A stretch of 64,000 bases of DNA from NCBI RefSeq assembly GCF_055900595.2, contig NZ_CM148325.1; one strand, 5' to 3'. Every line of letters begins with the position of its first letter. Position 1 is the stretch's first letter. A program made the position numbers and the translations under genes. Shown here piece after piece: positions 1,032-64,000 of this stretch. The notes under the pieces are model-generated. The model was not told where the DNA came from, did no database searches, and saw nothing but the letters and a program-made list of their open reading frames with translations.

Positions 1032-4000
1032 TGTCGCCGAGACACTAGATCCTTTGCGCTTGCCCTTACAGGGCGAGCGCCTGATTGAAGCCTCTGCCGG
1101 CACAGGCAAAACCTTTACGATTGCGGCGCTCTATTTGCGCCTGTTACTTGGACTAGGCGGTTCTGCCGCCTTTCCCCGCCCGCTGACCGTTGAAGAACTG
1201 CTGGTGGTGACCTTTACCGAGGCTGCCACGGCAGAATTGCGCGGTCGTATCCGTAGCAATATCCACGAGTTGCGCATCGCCTGTCTGCGTGAAACCACCG
1301 ACAATCCACTGTACGAACGCCTGCTGGAAGAGATCGACGATAAAGCGCAAGCCGCGCAGTGGTTGTTGTTAGCCGAACGGCAGATGGATGAAGCGGCAGT
1401 CTTTACTATTCACGGTTTTTGCCAGCGCATGCTCAACTTGAATGCCTTTGAATCCGGCATGCTGTTTGAGCAGCAGCTGATTGAAGATGAGTCTCTGCTA
1501 CGCTACCAGGCCTGCGCCGATTTCTGGCGTCGCCACTGCTACCCGCTGCCGCGTGAAATTGCCCAGGTGGTCTTTGAAACCTGGAAAGGGCCGCAGGCGT
1601 TGCTGCGCGATATTAATCGTTATCTGCAAGGCGAAGCACCGGTTATCAAAGCACCGCCGCCCGATGATGAAACGCTGGCTTCCCGCCACGCGCAAATTGT
1701 GGCGCGTATTGATACGGTAAAACAGCAGTGGCGCGACGCAGTGGGTGAACTGGATGCGCTGATCGAATCTTCTGGTATTGATCGACGCAAGTTTAACCGT
1801 AGCAATCAGGCTAAATGGATCGAGAAGATCAGTGCCTGGGCAGAAGAAGAGACCAACAGTTATCAGTTACCGGAGTCGCTGGAAAAATTCTCTCAGCGTT
1901 TCTTAGAAGATCGCACGAAAGCCGGGGGGGAAACCCCGCGACATCCACTGTTTGAGGCGATCGATCAACTGCTTGCAGAACCATTGTCGATCCGTGATCT
2001 GGTGATCACCCGCGCATTGGCTGAGATCCGCGAAACAGTAGCGCGTGAAAAACGCCGCCGTGGCGAATTGGGTTTTGATGACATGTTAAGTCGGCTCGAT
2101 TCCGCGCTGCGTAGCGAAAGCGGCGAGGTGTTGGCAGCGGCGATCCGTACGCGATTCCCGGTGGCAATGATTGATGAATTTCAGGATACCGACCCCCAGC
2201 AGTACCGAATTTTTCGCCGTATCTGGCACCATCAGCCGGAAACCGCATTGTTGCTGATTGGCGACCCGAAACAGGCCATATATGCATTCCGGGGTGCGGA
2301 TATCTTCACTTATATGAAGGCGCGTAGCGAAGTTCACGCCCACTACACCTTAGATACCAACTGGCGCTCCGCACCAGGAATGGTGAACAGCGTGAATAAG
2401 CTTTTCAGTCAGACTGATGACGCGTTCATGTTTCGCGAAATACCGTTTATTCCAGTGAAATCAGCCGGGAAAAATCAGGCGTTACGTTTTGTGTTTAAAG
2501 GTGAAACGCAGCCTGCGATGAAAATGTGGCTGATGGAAGGCGAAAGCTGCGGCGTTGGCGATTATCAAAGTACCATGGCGCAGGTATGTGCTGCGCAAAT
2601 CCGCGACTGGCTACAAGCCGGACAGCGGGGCGAAGCGTTGCTGATGAACGGCGACGACGCGCGTCCGGTGCGTGCTTCGGACATCAGTGTGCTGGTGCGC
2701 AGCCGCCAGGAGGCCGCTCAGGTGCGCGATGCCTTAACGCTGCTGGAAATCCCTTCCGTTTACCTTTCGAACCGCGACAGTGTTTTTGAAACTCTGGAAG
2801 CGCAGGAGATGCTTTGGCTGTTGCAGGCGGTGATGACACCAGAACGTGAGAACACCCTGCGCAGTGCGCTGGCAACGTCAATGATGGGGCTGAATGCGCT
2901 GGATATTGAAACGCTGAATAATGACGAACATGCGTGGGATGCGGTAGTCGAAGAGTTCGATGGTTATCGGCAAATCTGGCGCAAACGTGGCGTTATGCCG
3001 ATGCTGCGGGCGCTGATGTCGGCGCGTAACATTGCAGAAAACTTGCTGGCAACAGCAGGCGGTGAGCGGCGTCTTACCGATATCTTGCATATCAGCGAAT
3101 TGCTACAAGAAGCCGGAACGCAGCTGGAAAGTGAACATGCGCTGGTACGCTGGTTATCGCAACATATCCTCGAGCCAGACAGTAATGCCTCCAGCCAACA
3201 AATGCGTCTCGAAAGTGATAAACATCTGGTGCAGATTGTCACGATCCACAAATCGAAAGGGCTGGAATATCCATTGGTCTGGCTGCCGTTTATCACCAAT
3301 TTCCGCGTCCAGGATCAGGCGTTTTATCACGATCGCCACTCGTTTGAGGCTGTTCTGGATCTTAATGCTGCGCCAGAAAGCGTCGACCTCGCGGAGGCCG
3401 AACGTCTGGCGGAAGATCTGCGTTTGCTTTACGTTGCGCTGACGCGTTCGGTTTGGCATTGCAGTCTCGGCGTTGCACCGCTGGTGCGCCGTCGTGGCGA
3501 TAAAAAAGGTGACACCGACGTCCACCAAAGTGCGCTCGGGCGTTTGCTGCAAAAAGGGGAACCGCAAGATGCGGCAGGGCTTCGCACCTGTATTGAAGCG
3601 TTATGCGATGATGATATTGCCTGGCAAACGGCACAAACTGGTGATAACCAGCCCTGGCAGGTTAATGATGCTTTAACTGCAGAACTGAATGCGAGGACGC
3701 TACAACGATTGCCCGGCGATAACTGGCGTGTCACCAGCTACTCCGGTTTGCAGCAGCGTGGTCACGGTATCGCTCAGGATCTGATGCCACGGCTGGATGT
3801 TGATGCCGCAGGCGTGGTCAGCGTCGTTGAAGAACCGACGTTAACACCGCATCAGTTCCCGCGCGGTGCGTCACCAGGGACATTCTTGCACAGTTTGTTT
3901 GAAGACCTCGATTTTACCCAGCCGGTTGACCCGAACTGGGTACAGGAAAAACTGGAACTCGGCGGCTTTGAATCGCAGTGGGAACCAGTGTTGACCGAGT

Positions 4001-4566
4001 GGATCACGGCTGTCCTCCAGGCACCTCTCAATGAAACGGGTGTTAGCCTGAATCAGCTTTCCGACCGCGATAAACAGGTGGAGATGGAGTTTTACCTGCC
4101 GATTAGTGAACCGCTCATCGCCAGCCAGCTTGATGCACTAATTCGCCAGTTTGATCCGCTATCCGCTGGCTGCCCGCCGCTGGAGTTCATGCAGGTACGC
4201 GGCATGTTAAAAGGCTTTATCGACCTGGTATTCCGCCACGAAGGGCGTTATTACCTGCTCGACTATAAATCCAACTGGCTGGGTGAAGACAGTTCGGCTT
4301 ATACCCAACAGGCTATGGCAGCGGCGATGCAGGCACACCGCTATGATCTGCAATATCAGCTTTATACCCTGGCGCTGCATCGTTATCTGCGCCATCGCAT
4401 TGCTGATTACGACTATGATCGTCACTTTGGCGGCGTTATCTATCTGTTCCTGCGTGGCGTTGATAAAGAACATCCGCAACAAGGGATTTACACAACCCGA
4501 CCCAACGCCGGGTTGATTGACCTGATGGATGAGATGTTTGCCGGTATGACCCTGGAGGAGGCGTAA
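1024..4566 (+). CDS. recB: RecBCD exonuclease V subunit beta (helicase/nuclease)
   Basis: Translation [30 protein letters not shown] with Walker A; about 1180 aa; ORF track start MKRM trimmed to the MSDV start. Confidence 0.95.
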
Positions 4567-6392
4567 TGAAATTGCAAAAGCAATTACTGGAAGCTGTGGA
4601 GCACAAACAGCTACGCCCGCTGGATGTGCAATTTGCCCTGACCGTGGCGGGAGATGAACATCCTGCCGTCACCCTCGCGGCAGCCCTGTTAAGCCACGAC
4701 GCCGGGGAAGGGCATGTCTGTTTACCGCTCTCACGACTGGAAAATAACGAGGAGTCACATCCGCTGTTAGCAACCTGCGTCAGCGAAATCGGTGAGTTAC
4801 AAAATTGGGAAGAATGCTTGCTGGCTTCACAAGCGGTCAGCCGGGGAGATGAACCAACGCCGATGATCCTCTGTGGTGATCGTCTTTATTTGAATCGCAT
4901 GTGGTGTAACGAGCGCACAGTGGCACGCTTTTTCAACGAAGTGAATCATGCCATTGAGGTTGATGAAGCTCTACTGGCGCAAACCCTGGACAAACTTTTT
5001 CCAGTAAGCGATGAAATTAACTGGCAAAAAGTGGCGGCGGCAGTGGCGCTGACGCGGCGGATCTCGGTGATTTCCGGCGGCCCTGGCACCGGTAAAACGA
5101 CCACCGTAGCGAAGTTGCTGGCAGCGTTAATTCAAATGGCAGACGGCGAACGCTGCCGTATCCGTCTGGCTGCACCAACGGGTAAAGCTGCCGCGCGCTT
5201 AACCGAATCTCTCGGCAAGGCTTTGCGCCAGTTACCGCTGACCGATGAACAAAAGAAACGCATTCCGGAAGATGCCAGCACTTTGCACCGATTGCTGGGT
5301 GCGCAGCCGGGTAGCCAGCGTTTACGTCATCATGCCGGTAACCCGCTGCATCTTGATGTGCTGGTGGTAGATGAAGCGTCAATGATCGATCTGCCTATGA
5401 TGTCGAGACTGATCGACGCCTTGCCCGATCATGCGCGAGTGATCTTTCTCGGCGATCGTGATCAACTGGCCTCGGTTGAGGCTGGGGCTGTGCTGGGCGA
5501 TATCTGCGCTTATGCCAATGCGGGCTTTACCGCAGAGCGTGCCGGGCAGCTAAGCCGCCTGACGGGAAGCCACGTCCCGGCGGGAAGCGGTACGGAAGCG
5601 GCATCTTTGCGCGACAGTCTCTGCCTGCTGCAAAAAAGCTATCGTTTCGGCAGCGATTCTGGCATTGGTCAGTTAGCTGCGGCGATCAACCGTGGTGATA
5701 AAACGGCAGTGAAAACCGTTTTTCAGCAGGATTTTACTGATATCGAAAAACGGCTTTTACAGAGCGGCGAAGACTATATTGCGATGCTTGAGGAGGCTCT
5801 TGCGGGTTACGGGCGTTATCTGGATCTGCTTCAGGCACGTGCCGAGCCGGATTTAATCATTCAGGCGTTCAATGAGTACCAGCTTTTGTGCGCCCTGCGG
5901 GAAGGGCCGTTTGGCGTGGCTGGACTGAATGAGCGAATTGAGCAGTTTATGCAACAGAAGCGCAAAATTCATCGTCATCCGCACTCTCGTTGGTACGAAG
6001 GCCGACCAGTGATGATTGCCCGTAATGACAGCGCGCTTGGGTTGTTTAATGGCGATATCGGTATTGCGCTGGATCGCGGGCAGGGGACGCGCGTCTGGTT
6101 TGCGATGCCGGATGGCAATATTAAGTCTGTGCAACCGAGCCGCCTGCCAGAACACGAAACCACGTGGGCGATGACGGTACATAAATCGCAGGGATCGGAG
6201 TTTGACCATGCGGCGTTGATTTTACCGAGCCAACGCACGCCAGTTGTAACGCGAGAGCTGGTTTACACTGCGGTGACCCGCGCGCGTCGCCGTCTGTCGT
6301 TGTATGCCGATGAGCGCATATTAAGTGCGGCAATCGCCACTCGTACTGAGCGGCGCAGTGGTCTGGCGGCGTTGTTTAGTTCGCGGGAATAA
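4566..6392 (+). CDS. recD: RecBCD exonuclease V subunit alpha (helicase)
   Basis: 608 aa, GGPGTGKTT Walker A; ATG overlaps recB stop by 1 nt (TAATG). Confidence 0.95.
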
Positions 6393-60056: not shown

Positions 60057-60137
60057 GGTTAAATCCCTTTTAATTAATTCCTTAAAACATAATACGCCAC
60101 TTCATTTTATTCTTTATGATCTAATCCACTTTTTGCC

Positions 60138-61466
60138 CTGAGAGATCCCCTCATAATTTCCCCAAAACGTAACCATGTGTGAATAGATTTTGAGTAAGCA
60201 GGGTTGCAGCCACGAGTGAGTCTTCCCTTGTTATTGTGTAGCCAGAATGCCGCAAAACTTCCATGCCTAAGCGAACTGTTGAGAGTACGTTTCGATTTCT
60301 GACTGTGTTAGCCTGGAAGTGCTTGTCCCAACCTTGTTTCTGAGCATGAACGCCCGCAAGCCAACATGTTAGTTGAAGCATCAGGGCGATTAGCAGCATG
60401 ATATCAAAACGCTCTGAGCTGCTCGTTCGGCTATGGCGTAGGCCTAGTCCGTAGGCAGGACTTTTCAAGTCTCGGAAGGTTTCTTCAATCTGCATTCGCT
60501 TCGAATAGATATTAACAAGTTGTTTGGGTGTTCGAATTTCAACAGGTAAGTTAGTTGCTAGAATCCATGGCTCCTTTGCCGACGCTGAGTAGATTTTAGG
60601 TGACGGGTGGTGACAATGAGTCCGTGTCGAGCGCTGATTTTTTCGGCCTTTAGAGCGAGATTTATACAATAGAATTTGGCATGAGATTGGATTGCTTTTA
60701 GTCAGCCTCTTATAGCCTAAAGTCTTTGAGTGACTAGATGACATATCATGTAAGTTGCTGATAGGTTTCCAGTTTTCCGCTCCTAGGTCTGCATATTGTA
60801 CTTTTCCTCTTACTCGACTTAACCAGTACCAACCCAGCTTCTCAACGGATTTATACCATGGCACTTTAAAGCCAGCATCACTGACAATGAGCGGTGTGGT
60901 GTTACTCGGTAGAATGCTCGCAAGGTCGGCTAGAAATTGGTCATGAGCTTTCTTTGAACATTGCTCTGAAAGCGGGAACGCTTTCTCATAAAGAGTAACA
61001 GAACGACCGTGTAGTGCGACTGAAGCTCGCAATACCATAAGCCGTTTTTGCTCACGGATATCAGACCAGTCAACAAGTACAATGGGCATCGTATTGCCCG
61101 AACAGATAAAGCTAGCATGCCAACGGTATACAGCGAGTCGCTCTTTGTGGAGGTGACGATTACCTAACAATCGGTCGATTCGTTTGATGTTATGTTTTGT
61201 TCTCGCTTTGGTTGGCAGGTTACGGCCAAGTTCGGTAAGAGTGAGAGTTTTACAGTCAAGTAAGGCGTGGCAAGCCAACGTTAAGCTGTTGAGTCGTTTT
61301 AAGTGTAATTCGGGGCAGAATTGGTAAAGAGAGTCGTGTAAAATATCGAGTTCGCACATTTTGTTGTCTGATTATTGATTTTTGGCGAAACCATTTGATC
61401 ATATGACAAGATGTGTATCCACCTTAACTTAATGATTTTTACCAAAATCATTAGGGGATTCATCAG
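60138..61466 (-). mobile_element. IS10 (IS4 family), complete 1329 bp copy flanked by 9 bp target site duplication CTTTTTGCC
   Basis: Inside end ctgagagatcccctcataatttccccaaaacg at 60138; outside end (reverse complement ctgatgaatcccctaatgattttggtaaaaatcatt) at 61466; identical 9-mers at 60129-60137 and 61467-61475. Confidence 0.9.
60151..61359 (-). CDS. IS10 transposase
   Basis: 402 aa starting MCELDILHDSLYQFCPELHLKRLNSLTLACHALLDCKTLTLTELGRNLPTKARTKH, full length with no frameshift. Confidence 0.9.
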   Translation of the reverse strand: MCELDILHDSLYQFCPELHLKRLNSLTLACHALLDCKTLTLTELGRNLPTKARTKHNIKRIDRLLGNRHLHKERLAVYRWHASFICSGNTMPIVLVDWSDIREQKRLMVLRASVALHGRSVTLYEKAFPLSEQCSKKAHDQFLADLASILPSNTTPLIVSDAGFKVPWYKSVEKLGWYWLSRVRGKVQYADLGAENWKPISNLHDMSSSHSKTLGYKRLTKSNPISCQILLYKSRSKGRKNQRSTRTHCHHPSPKIYSASAKEPWILATNLPVEIRTPKQLVNIYSKRMQIEETFRDLKSPAYGLGLRHSRTSSSERFDIMLLIALMLQLTCWLAGVHAQKQGWDKHFQANTVRNRNVLSTVRLGMEVLRHSGYTITREDSLVAATLLTQNLFTHGYVLGKL

Positions 61467-61566
61467 CTTTTTGCCTTAAACCTGCCTGTAACAGAATGTT
61501 AATAAGACATGATTGTTGTGGCAGGATCTGCAATAATTAACAATTATCCACTTCACAGAGAATGCT

Positions 61567-62238
61567 ATGCAGTACCCGATTAACGAGATGTTCCAGACCC
61601 TGCAAGGTGAGGGTTACTTTACCGGCGTCCCCGCCATTTTTATTCGTTTACAGGGATGCCCGGTCGGCTGTGCCTGGTGCGACACCAAACACACCTGGGA
61701 AAAGCTTGAGGATCGGGAAGTCTCCCTTTTCAGCATTCTGGCGAAGACCAAAGAGAGTGATAAGTGGGGGGCGGCGAGCAGTGAAGATTTGCTGGCTGTC
61801 ATTGGTCGTCAGGGATACACCGCGCGGCATGTGGTGATTACGGGTGGTGAGCCTTGCATTCATGATTTGCTGCCACTGACTGACCTGCTCGAAAAGAACG
61901 GTTTTAGCTGCCAGATCGAAACCAGCGGTACTCATGAAGTACGCTGCACGCCGAATACCTGGGTTACCGTATCGCCAAAGCTGAACATGCGCGGCGGCTA
62001 TGAAGTGTTGTCACAGGCACTGGAACGAGCCAACGAAATCAAGCATCCAGTGGGACGCGTACGTGATATTGAAGCACTGGATGAACTACTGGCAACGCTG
62101 ACCGATGATAAACCACGAGTCATTGCACTGCAGCCAATTAGCCAGAAGGACGATGCCACACGTTTGTGCATTGAAACCTGTATTGCGCGTAACTGGCGTT
62201 TATCGATGCAAACACATAAATATTTAAATATTGCCTGA
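61567..62238 (+). CDS. queE: 7-carboxy-7-deazaguanine synthase (radical SAM)
   Basis: MQYPINEMFQTLQGEGYFTGVPAIFIRLQGCPVGCAWCDTKHTW; 223 aa. Confidence 0.9.
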   Translation: MQYPINEMFQTLQGEGYFTGVPAIFIRLQGCPVGCAWCDTKHTWEKLEDREVSLFSILAKTKESDKWGAASSEDLLAVIGRQGYTARHVVITGGEPCIHDLLPLTDLLEKNGFSCQIETSGTHEVRCTPNTWVTVSPKLNMRGGYEVLSQALERANEIKHPVGRVRDIEALDELLATLTDDKPRVIALQPISQKDDATRLCIETCIARNWRLSMQTHKYLNIA

Positions 62239-62399
62239 TTAAACATTTATAAGCGTTATAAATGGGTGGAACCTGTAAAGACTTCCACTCATTTATATTC
62301 TTTGTCGCCTCTGAAAAAACTCCATTTTGCCCATCCTGGACTAATCATTATCATTCTCTACAAATTCTCTGGCGTTAATTTTTCGTTGGAGTGAAAATT

Positions 62400-62576
62400 A
62401 TTGCGGTAAAGTTTGGTAGATTTTAGTGGGTATAGAGTTATTTTAAATATTTACTTTTTTAATCAATGGATTAAGTGTTCTTTAACATAATGGATGTGTT
62501 GTTTGTGTGATCCTGTAAAGTTGGTAGATTGTGACTGGCTTAAAAAATCATTAATTAATAATAGGTTATGTTTAGA
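62400..62576 (+). promoter_or_regulatory. CRISPR leader (AT-rich) for the type I-E array
   Basis: AT-rich sequence ending ...tggtagattgtgactggcttaaaaaatcattaattaataataggttatgtttaga directly 5' of the first repeat; partial internal duplication of cctgtaaagtt(t)ggtagatt. Confidence 0.55.
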
Positions 62577-63154
62577 GAGTTCCCCACGTCAGCGGGGATA
62601 AACCTTGCTCGATGCGGGCGTTAACTTTTTTATAGGCGAGTTCCCCGCGCCAGCGGGGATAAACCGCGTAATTTTGTACGCTCAACACGTAACTAAATGA
62701 GTTCCCCGCGCCAGCGGGGATAAACCGATCACCAGTGCGGATTGTTCAAATAGTGCCTGGAGTTCCCCGCGCCAGCGGGGATAAACCGAGAGCTATATCG
62801 CAGCGTTTAACTGGATGACAGAGTTCCCCGCGCCAGCGGGGATAAACCGGTGTTTTTTGCCATCTGAACTGTGGCACGCCGGAGTTCCCCGCGCCAGCGG
62901 GGATAAACCGTCTATAATGTCTCATCCGGGGTTAATTCAATCGAGTTCCCCGCGCCAGCGGGGATAAACCGATCAGCCCCACATCCGGTTTTGCCAGCAA
63001 CGTGAGTTCCCCGCGCCAGCGGGGATAAACCGTAAGATGATCTCACGGAATTGAACGAACTACGGAGTTCCCCGCGCTAGCGGGGATAAACCGGACACAG
63101 AGCGCCGCTATAGCGCCTATGCCAAGAGTTCCCCGCACCAGCGGGAATAAACCA
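62577..63154 (+). CRISPR. Type I-E CRISPR array, 10 repeats and 9 spacers of 32 nt (61 bp period)
   Basis: Repeat GAGTTCCCCGCGCCAGCGGGGATAAACCG at 62638, 62699, 62760, 62821, 62882, 62943, 63004; degenerate copies at 62577, 63065 and 63126. Confidence 0.9.
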
Positions 63155-63608
63155 CCATATAACCCGTTATCTCTTTCTCAAGTTTTTATATTAGCAGTAC
63201 TCGTATTAAGCAACATATCCACGTAACACCTCATGTTCAAAATAGCTCTCCATATATGAGAAGTTCACAATTATCGATACAAAAAATCAAATTTAATTAA
63301 AGTGTTAGTTGTATAATACTTAAATCATTAAGAAATTATCATATATTATTTTTTTAATATTGAATTGATGTTTGTTAATTTTTTCTTTAGGATAATAGTT
63401 TGTTTTTTAAGCTTATTATTCATTGATTAAGTAATAAATCTGGAAATTTGTCTTTGTTTTGAGGCTAATGAGTGATTTTACATAATCGCCTCTATAGGCT
63501 GTTGATGAATAGTTCTTATGAATAAAGATATCCAGTTCATACTTTAAGTGAAAATTGATAAAGTGCGATTCGTATTGTCTTTTATTCTAATGACATCGAG
63601 TGTAGTTA

Positions 63609-63746
63609 ATATTCCTTGTAAAAACAGGGATAAACCGAACTAGTTAAAGTTTTTATTATGTTCCCTGCATCAGCGGGGATAAACCGGACTTGTTATCATT
63701 TTTTAAGTTGTCGAACTTATGTTCCCCGCGCCAGCGGGGATAACCA
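63609..63746 (+). CRISPR. Second, degenerate mini-array (3 repeat-like units) preceded by its own AT-rich leader
   Basis: ...cagggataaaccg / atgttccctgcatcagcggggataaaccg / 32 nt spacer / atgttccccgcgccagcggggataacc; AT-rich 63160-63600 upstream. Confidence 0.6.
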
Positions 63747-63792
63747 TTCAGGTATGTTCAGGCCGGGCAGTTTCCCGCCCGGCCTTCCTCAC

Positions 63793-64000
63793 TTACGCAT
63801 TCGACCAGCTCTGGATCGAATCTTCATTCCCCAGCTCACCATGCATCACTTCATACGATTTTTTCAGGATCACATCAGTGTGCTTGGTTAGGTCTTTGAA
63901 AATGCCTTTATTCATCGCGTCGTAGCGTTTGGCGTTGCTCTCAACAGGCATAAAGATATCTTTCACGCGAACCATTTTGTCGACAGCCGTTGCGTAATCC
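63793..64000 (-). CDS. ygcE: C-terminal end of a gene running off the window edge (probably FGGY-type sugar kinase YgcE)
   Basis: Open minus-strand frame from the window end to the stop at 63793; hairpin ggccgggcagtttcccgcccggcc downstream; identity inferred from synteny only. Confidence 0.45.
   Translation of the reverse strand, partial: DYATAVDKMVRVKDIFMPVESNAKRYDAMNKGIFKDLTKHTDVILKKSYEVMHGELGNEDSIQSWSNA

Follow-up and report, generated by a model that had tools for sequence, protein, structure and literature searches.

The stretch between queE and ygcE analyzed here holds, next to a regular CRISPR array, an AT-rich block followed by three repeat-like units, and the question it raises is whether these are the remnant of a second array with its own leader, as a first-pass annotation made from the letters alone had proposed. 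Our combined findings indicate that the feature is very likely CRISPR2.2, the vestigial leader-distal tail of the Escherichia coli type I-E CRISPR-II locus (queE/ygcF-ygcE), made up of three decayed repeats and two frozen spacers and separated by the block from the active CRISPR2.3 array. CRISPR2.2 already has a name in the literature and is not a new locus. The decayed mini-array of the proposal thus stands, whereas the leader assigned to it is not supported, as judged by homology, junction, promoter, evolutionary rate and spacer turnover.

Within the window (the whole stretch of DNA analyzed, 64,000 nt), the ORF listing places queE at 61567-62238 on the plus strand, with its stop at 62238. 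Between this stop and the first repeat lies leader2.3, the AT-rich, 338-nt leader of the main array (62239-62576, plus strand). A pattern search then delimited the CRISPR2.3 array of 10 type I-E repeats and 9 spacers (62577-63154, plus strand), with 10 matches at 61-nt spacing versus 0 expected; the homologous stretch is annotated as CRISPR by the NCBI pipeline (PGAP) in other genomes. The AT-rich, non-coding block begins directly behind it. The block had been described as about 450 bp long and as setting the units about 450 bp apart from the main array, and both estimates were accurate: it spans 454 nt (63155-63608) at a GC content of 0.262, compared with 0.305 in leader2.3 and 0.496 in the whole window. 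Beyond the mini-array, a GC-rich hairpin with a 9-bp stem in the minimum-free-energy fold (63760-63785) sits between the last repeat and the stop codon of ygcE. This hairpin is kept in every Escherichia locus read and probably functions as a bidirectional terminator. The 3' end of ygcE, which codes for a FGGY-family kinase, occupies 63793-64000 on the minus strand, as identified from the ORF listing and the annotation of homologous records, and is cut by the window end.

Three repeat-like units are indeed present, all on the plus strand. We scored them against the 29-nt I-E (type 2) repeat consensus, GAGTTCCCCGCGCCAGCGGGGATAAACCG. The second unit, U2 (63658-63686; ATGTTCCCTGCATCAGCGGGGATAAACCG), is full length but mutated, as had been noted, and the third, U3 (63719-63745; ATGTTCCCCGCGCCAGCGGGGATAACC), is a terminal repeat in which the reported deletion amounts to 1 nt and changes the 3' end to ATAACC (GGGGATAACC). 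Each matches the consensus at 24/29 positions without gaps, while the best background 29-mer among 128,000 positions on both strands of the 64-kb window reached 19/29. The match of U2 and U3 to the I-E repeat is therefore far beyond chance, and the formal alignment upholds their identification as repeats. The unit that had been read as truncated, cagggataaaccg (63625-63637), is in fact no fragment: it forms the 3' end of U1 (63609-63637; ATATTCCTTGTAAAAACAGGGATAAACCG), a degenerate repeat of full length. U1 matches the consensus at 18/29 positions, a score which alone falls in the tail of the background, with 10 such 29-mers within the window. That it is a genuine repeat follows from its register, with a start 49 nt upstream of U2, from its 22/29 match to U2, from a perfect 11-nt 3' end and from its hairpin: U1 folds as the consensus does, into a 7-bp stem with a tetraloop, by way of two C-G to U-A changes and one G.U pair. 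The hairpin of U2 is also kept, with one G.U pair, and the stem of U3 is perfect; all three units share the dot-bracket structure of the consensus repeat, and their hairpins also form in a 301-nt context. The 3' ATAAACCG, which makes up the 5' handle of a crRNA, is intact in U1 and U2, with ATAACC in its place in U3.

Two spacers separate these repeats. The second, S2 (63687-63718, plus strand), is exactly 32 nt long and intact, as reported, giving the canonical 61-nt spacing between U2 and U3. U1 and U2 are only 49 nt apart because the first 'spacer', S1 (63638-63657, plus strand), has only 20 nt. S1 has no second copy within the window. We considered whether it is a decayed duplicate of S2, and this is weakly supported: 12/20 positions are identical to the start of S2, with P = 0.02 at the natural offset and P = 0.24 over all offsets. 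The BLAST search suggested for the spacer returned S2 at its own locus only, with no protospacer in phages, in plasmids or elsewhere in complete E. coli genomes; the remaining matches had E >= 0.02 and are at chance level. The spacer sequence used as a text query in the literature likewise gave no match.

These features agree with what is known of the locus. The CRISPR-II locus of E. coli comprises up to three type I-E arrays, with CRISPR2.1 adjoining the cas genes and CRISPR2.3 and CRISPR2.2 located between ygcE and ygcF (queE), and leaders are given in the literature to CRISPR2.1 and CRISPR2.3 only (PMC4489801, PMC3903273, PMC3737337). Published CRISPR2.2 has 3 repeats and 2 invariable spacers and lies 0.5 kb from CRISPR2.3 (PMC4489801, PMC3903273, PMC10910852). 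Under the Diez-Villasenor/Almendros/Mojica nomenclature (PMC3903273, PMC4489801, PMC3737337), the locus, the distance of ~0.5 kb, the three type-2 repeats and the two invariable spacers are all as found here. The mini-arrays of K-12, O157:H7 and BL21 are nearly identical to that of the window (99.3% over the 150-nt stretch from the block end to S2), and the allele of the window differs from published CRISPR2.2 by point polymorphisms only, such as a C for T in the U3 loop. CRISPR2.2 also resembles the leader-distal ends of ordinary arrays, in which terminal repeats degenerate with distance from the active leader and the oldest spacers have no known target. Unlike such ends, it lies behind an intervening 454-nt non-repeat block, and its most degenerate unit, U1, faces the block rather than the array end.

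To see how general this arrangement is, we turned to complete E. coli genomes. A comparison with the ygcE-queE loci of other E. coli had been proposed, and it revealed the same mini-array in most genomes: block and mini-array together (646-nt query, >= 80% coverage) were present in 4123 of 5426 complete genomes, and the block alone in 4164 (77%), where its median copy number is one, it matches no more than two places per genome and it is absent from the plasmids. Of the 4062 genomes with S2, 4048 have a 100% identical copy, and in 4038 of 4157 genomes nothing interrupts the 150-nt stretch from the end of the block through U1-S1-U2-S2. Where loci are interrupted, every variant inspected was a deletion: U2 and S2 are lost in NCTC86, the block together with U1 and S1 in EC-1639, and S1 and U2 in the divergent lineage E69. 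No spacer gain was seen among the interrupted loci inspected. CRISPR2.2 is thus not adapting independently, and its spacer content is fixed across the species.

We then asked whether the AT-rich block could nonetheless be a leader. Like the leaders of E. coli I-E arrays (leader2.1 types A and T, and leader2.3), it is AT-rich, non-coding, a few hundred nucleotides long and located upstream of a first repeat; it carries no conserved ORF and abuts U1 on the upstream side. Unlike them, it shows no homology to a known leader, no ...TTTAGA|G junction, mostly neutral evolution and no spacer turnover. An nhmmer profile of leader2.3 built from E. coli, E. albertii, E. whittamii and E69 recovered leader2.1 of both type A (E = 3e-5) and type T (E = 6e-3), which are genuine if distant relatives, yet none of 12 alleles of the block did better than E >= 3, all at negative bit scores, and searching in the opposite direction found nothing either. 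Pairwise local alignment of the block with leader2.3 was marginal, with 8 of 300 shuffles scoring as well. In the two leader families the first repeat is preceded by ...TTTAGA or ...CTTAGT, while the block ends in ...GTGTAGTTA, and no TTTAGA|G-type junction precedes U1 or U2. Promoter-like sites in the block number 5, versus 5.0 +/- 2.0 in shuffled sequences, and the one plus-strand candidate, at 63459-63486 (TTGAGG-16-CATAAT) reads CATAAC in K-12 and E69. A scan for the IHF consensus (<= 1 mismatch) gave 0 matches within 80 nt of U1, but lacks power, since the last 80 nt of the true leader2.3 also gave 0.

The rate at which the block evolves points in the same direction. We examined 12 alleles of the block and one block-carrying outgroup base by base, and took the rates from K-12 versus this outgroup, 'E. 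coli E69', a divergent Escherichia lineage whose ygcE is 92% identical to that of K-12. Positions 63155-63504 differ from E69 by 20-34% and contain several indels, compared with 29% at the four-fold sites of ygcE, so that the left ~350 nt of the block appear to drift at the neutral rate. Leader2.3 differs from that of E69 by 6%, and is 94% identical in E. albertii and E69. Since neither homology nor junction, promoter-like sites, rate or turnover speaks for it, the block is unlikely to serve as an I-E leader at present. That it once was one is not demonstrable, but an old leader eroded in full, which would be left with just such AT content, length and orientation, is a possible source.

How, then, did the split arrangement arise? 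A ygcE motif, scanned against a single genome of each species, yielded six Escherichia loci. In E. albertii and E. whittamii, leader2.3 is followed by one array or only one repeat, which closes with the ATAACC end and the U3 flank, and the block is missing; MOD1-EC7003 has a similar undivided array without the block; two Escherichia lineages lack CRISPR-II altogether, and E69 carries the block. The same terminal repeat and flank also close the fused arrays found in some E. coli genomes, and U3, a terminal repeat common to all Escherichia CRISPR-II arrays, is the ancestral end of the CRISPR-II locus. Among E. coli genomes there are no intermediate alleles resembling the block of E69, the best identity being 76%. 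Together with the neutral-level divergence from E69, this indicates that the block is older than the split of E. coli and E69. Judged from these comparisons, the block is not a recent insertion in 'some strains', and the split state is both common and old in E. coli.

Fused arrays nevertheless occur, and at least one of them is derived. In EC-1639 the order is leader2.3-R-S-R-S2-U3, with a consensus repeat followed by S2 as the last spacer and then U3. Because it is a consensus repeat that precedes S2-U3, the fused CRISPR2.2-3 array of this genome is, judging from the order of its units, demonstrably a secondary deletion from the split form by repeat-repeat recombination. The terminal repeats of the fused arrays in strains 7CC and C25 combine a 5' end of the 2.3 type (GAG) with a 3' end of the U3 type (ATAACC), consistent with the same deletion origin. 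Since undivided arrays can arise secondarily in this manner, those of the outgroups are not decisive, and the ones in E. albertii and E. whittamii may be either ancestral or secondary.

The block may thus be what is left of a leader, or it may go back to an old insertion into a single spacer slot, and the two readings have to be weighed against each other. On the second reading, an insertion of ~420 nt of AT-rich DNA into one spacer would have divided an ancestral single array, after which the distal units decayed. This is the origin favored by the wording in PMC10910852, and it accounts for a block that fills exactly one inter-repeat slot and has no leader homology, as well as for undivided arrays with the same ATAACC repeat and flank in E. 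albertii, E. whittamii and MOD1-EC7003. The evidence from EC-1639 weakens the last of these points, and the presence of the block in 77% of complete genomes, together with its age, sits poorly with an insertion confined to 'some strains'. Nor does the block bear the signature of a mobile element. Considered as a MITE, an insertion sequence or another mobile element, it is present as a single copy, has no terminal inverted repeats and has no homologs in 50,697 phage and 72,556 plasmid records, so that with neither inverted ends nor a second copy a transposable-element origin is unsupported. Strong matches to the block in the plasmid collection were mislabelled E. coli chromosomes only. We regard an insertion as a tenable origin, held at somewhat below even confidence.

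The alternative put forward at the outset, that the block was the leader of a once independent second array and that both have since decayed, draws on the low GC content of the block and its length of 454 nt relative to the 338 nt of leader2.3, directly upstream of U1 in the direction of repeat transcription. The repeats themselves lend it some support: U1, U2 and U3 share an AT 5' end, unlike the GA of the CRISPR2.3 repeats, which suggests a separate repeat lineage, and CRISPR2.3 closes with a repeat ending in ...ACCA, as a true array end does. A conserved island in the block (63497-63567, 71 nt), recognized by comparison with E69, lies 42-112 nt upstream of U1, and an IHF-like patch on the minus strand (AATCAATGAATAA, 63416-63428) is similar to a perfect consensus site in leader2.3 (62461-62473) and belongs to a short segment conserved in E69. 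Set against these are a profile that links leader2.3 to leader2.1 and detects no homology in the block, the missing junction motif, a promoter signal no higher than chance, the neutral drift of ~350 nt, the absence of spacer turnover across >4000 genomes, and the single leader and single array, with the same terminal repeat and no block, in E. albertii and E. whittamii. On balance, an own leader for CRISPR2.2 seems doubtful to us.

The tail of CRISPR-II is, however, more conserved than a pure fossil would be expected to be. The island shows 3 differences from E69 in 72 aligned positions (P = 6e-8 at the 29% four-fold rate), and U1, S2 and U3 together show 4 in 88 versus 29% expected (P = 4e-9 at the four-fold rate), with U1 identical at 29/29 positions and S2 at 30/32. 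The 41 nt between the island and U1 are not so conserved, with 8 differences in 38 positions, and neither are the left 350 nt of the block; this heterogeneity of rates is significant (Fisher's test, P = 0.002). Within E. coli, nucleotide diversity (pi) is 0.012 in the island and 0.08 in the block centre, and among 11 diverse genomes 2 of 110 columns are variable in U1-S1-U2-S2, none of them in S1, compared with 37 of 181 in the block centre (63250-63430); no other part of the intergenic region is as little polymorphic as the island and the mini-array. Such conservation could reflect a promoter or leader core or a functional crRNA-like unit, while mosaic recombination is also a possible source, given that the comparison involves one outgroup.

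One function that would fit a conserved mini-array is that of the CreA/CreR-type regulators, crRNA-like RNAs that guide Cascade to a partly matching promoter; the island would then be the promoter of a domesticated element. As in the CreA/CreR mini-CRISPRs (PMC9458426, PMC8501985, bioRxiv 10.1101/2023.03.10.532045), which have 2-3 degenerate repeats, the handle and hairpin are kept in CRISPR2.2 and a conserved spacer without a phage target does not turn over. Salmonella enterica provides a type I-E precedent (bioRxiv 10.1101/2023.03.10.532045), the spacers are fixed species-wide, and U1, S2 and the island differ from E69 far less than expected under neutrality. The targets of such regulators are defined by PAM-flanked, seed-proximal, partial complementarity of about 11-15 nt to a cas or toxin promoter. 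No PAM-flanked match of seed plus extension to S1 or S2 was found in the block, in leader2.3, in the 64-kb window or in the cas region (iap to cysI) of K-12 and of the nearest genome, Z0117EC0005, and 7-nt seed matches were at or below chance (~5 found versus ~8 expected). CRISPR2.2 has no adjacent toxin candidate and, unlike CreA/CreR, is not located between cas genes, being roughly 15-25 kb from the cas operon as gauged in K-12 J53 (cas operon, 3313675-3322325; ygcE, with CRISPR2.2 beside it, 3337002-3338480). It is kept in BL21(DE3), a lineage that lacks the cas genes and the 2.1 leader according to the literature, and natural deletions of S1 or S2 occur. The U1 hairpin, whose base changes might be taken as compensatory evolution and hence as proof of selection, cannot serve in this way: all of its pairs survive in 16% of random GC-to-AT transition paths. 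We therefore consider a CreA/CreR-type regulator improbable.

Least probable of all is that the island belongs to a gene for a small protein or an sRNA unrelated to CRISPR. An ORF of 31 aa with a GTG start (63548-63643) overlaps both the island and U1, its product would have a hydrophobic core, and the region folds better than shuffled sequences (z = -4.2), largely owing to the repeat and terminator hairpins. As a conserved small protein this ORF was rejected, given 7 non-synonymous versus 1 synonymous codon changes between K-12 and E69; its stop is read through in E69, no Shine-Dalgarno sequence is visible, and conservation starts ~50 nt upstream of it. For an sRNA, a search of 62200-64000 against Rfam found nothing relevant, with no family at E <= 1. 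There is likewise only a slight chance that the island and U1-S1-U2-S2 are under purifying selection across Escherichia lineages as a small transcription unit, yielding a fixed crRNA-like RNA with S2 and possibly the 20-nt S1 as guides in a non-defence role, either regulatory or in cis at the array end. Were the conservation due to selection, a fixed crRNA-like element would be part of the E. coli genome.

Returning to CRISPR2.2 as a vestigial tail, we considered how it might be expressed. No terminator-like site is predicted from 62621, in the first CRISPR2.3 spacer, to the hairpin at 63760-63785, and transcripts from leader2.3 may for this reason run through the block into the mini-array. 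Any transcription of the mini-array would then stem mainly from the leader2.3 promoter by read-through, with U2 supplying the ATAAACCG 5' handle and U3 an intact 3' hairpin. Given the Cas6e-type hairpins in U1-U3 and the handle from U2, S2 could mature into a canonical 61-nt crRNA in cas-positive, derepressed cells. As this crRNA would have no detectable target, CRISPR2.2 is presumably inert immunologically. The genome closest to the window (100% identity over the region) has a type I-E cas operon in which cas3 is frameshifted.

The significance of a named, species-wide remnant is small overall. Recognizing CRISPR2.2 can nonetheless prevent miscounted arrays or the mistaken report of a new locus: it is typically missed by array callers, and in the homologous records that we opened, PGAP had marked the main array alone as CRISPR. 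For E. coli CRISPR typing and evolution it is of modest use that the 0.5-kb block is not detectably homologous to a leader, that the split is the majority and old state, and that at least one fused array, that of EC-1639, is derived from it. As a minor observation, the sole Rfam match in this region was a sub-threshold one to nadA, and it lies inside the main array.

At least one fused array of the kind designated CRISPR2.2-3, in which CRISPR2.3 and the mini-array CRISPR2.2 are not separated by the AT-rich block, provides direct evidence of an origin by deletion between repeats. In E. coli EC-1639 (NZ_LR025101.1; positions 1239-1386 of the extracted locus), the fused array runs leader2.3-repeat-spacer-repeat-S2-U3. 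Because S2, the invariant 32-nt mini-array spacer, is retained there as the last spacer and is preceded by a consensus repeat, while the block, the degenerate repeat U1 and the 20-nt spacer S1 are all absent, a repeat-repeat deletion accounts for this arrangement.

An orthologous block and a mini-array are present in CP089930.1 (positions 675-1223 of the extracted locus), a sequence deposited under the name E. coli strain E69 that represents a divergent Escherichia lineage, with a ygcE 92% identical to that of K-12. Its block is ~76% identical, its mini-array has the order U1-S2-U3, and its U3 carries an undeleted ATAAACC. Other Escherichia genomes lack the CRISPR-II array: E. coli RMDEC465 and loci L018 and L020. 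In RMDEC465, the place of the array (1804-2530 of the locus) is taken by a leader2.3-like remnant (…CTTAAAAAATCAATATAAACAATAGGTTATGATTGG), an ORF of 87 amino acids, for which a Pfam search gave no match, and other AT-rich DNA, and in L018 the gap from queE to ygcE is only ~100 nt.

Among 11 E. coli genomes, polymorphism between ygcE and queE is highest in the centre of the block (63250-63430), which has a pi of 0.08 and 37 variable columns out of 181. Two deep haplotypes are seen here, with quiet flanks on either side. A short palindromic motif in leader2.3, AATCAATGGATTA (62461-62473), agrees with the IHF consensus, and a near copy, TTATTCATTGATT, is found on the plus strand of the block at 63416-63434. 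The near copy falls within a small patch that is kept in the E69 lineage; it could also be a chance occurrence in AT-rich DNA.

Both terminal repeats of the main array carry three mismatches. Those of the first repeat (62577-62605) include a stem mutation (CCCCACG), and its final base is T; the last repeat (63126-63154) reads GCACCAGCGGGAATAAACCA. Spacer acquisition might be affected by the mutated leader-proximal repeat. Interference may be defective in the lineage of E. coli Z0117EC0005, the genome nearest to the window, as judged from the annotation of its cas region (2346-4934 of the locus; a region outside the window itself), since cas3 is annotated as frameshifted. The neighbours of cas3 there are IS421 and a hok/gef gene.

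A complete insertion sequence lies ~100 nt upstream of queE (60139-61467), bounded on both sides by a 9-bp direct duplication, CTTTTTGCC (60130-60138 and 61468-61476). On the basis of its end sequences, rather than of a database match, we take this element to be IS10-like. Its transposase ORF (60151-61359, minus strand) matches the Pfam family DDE_Tnp_1 (E = 1.5e-24).
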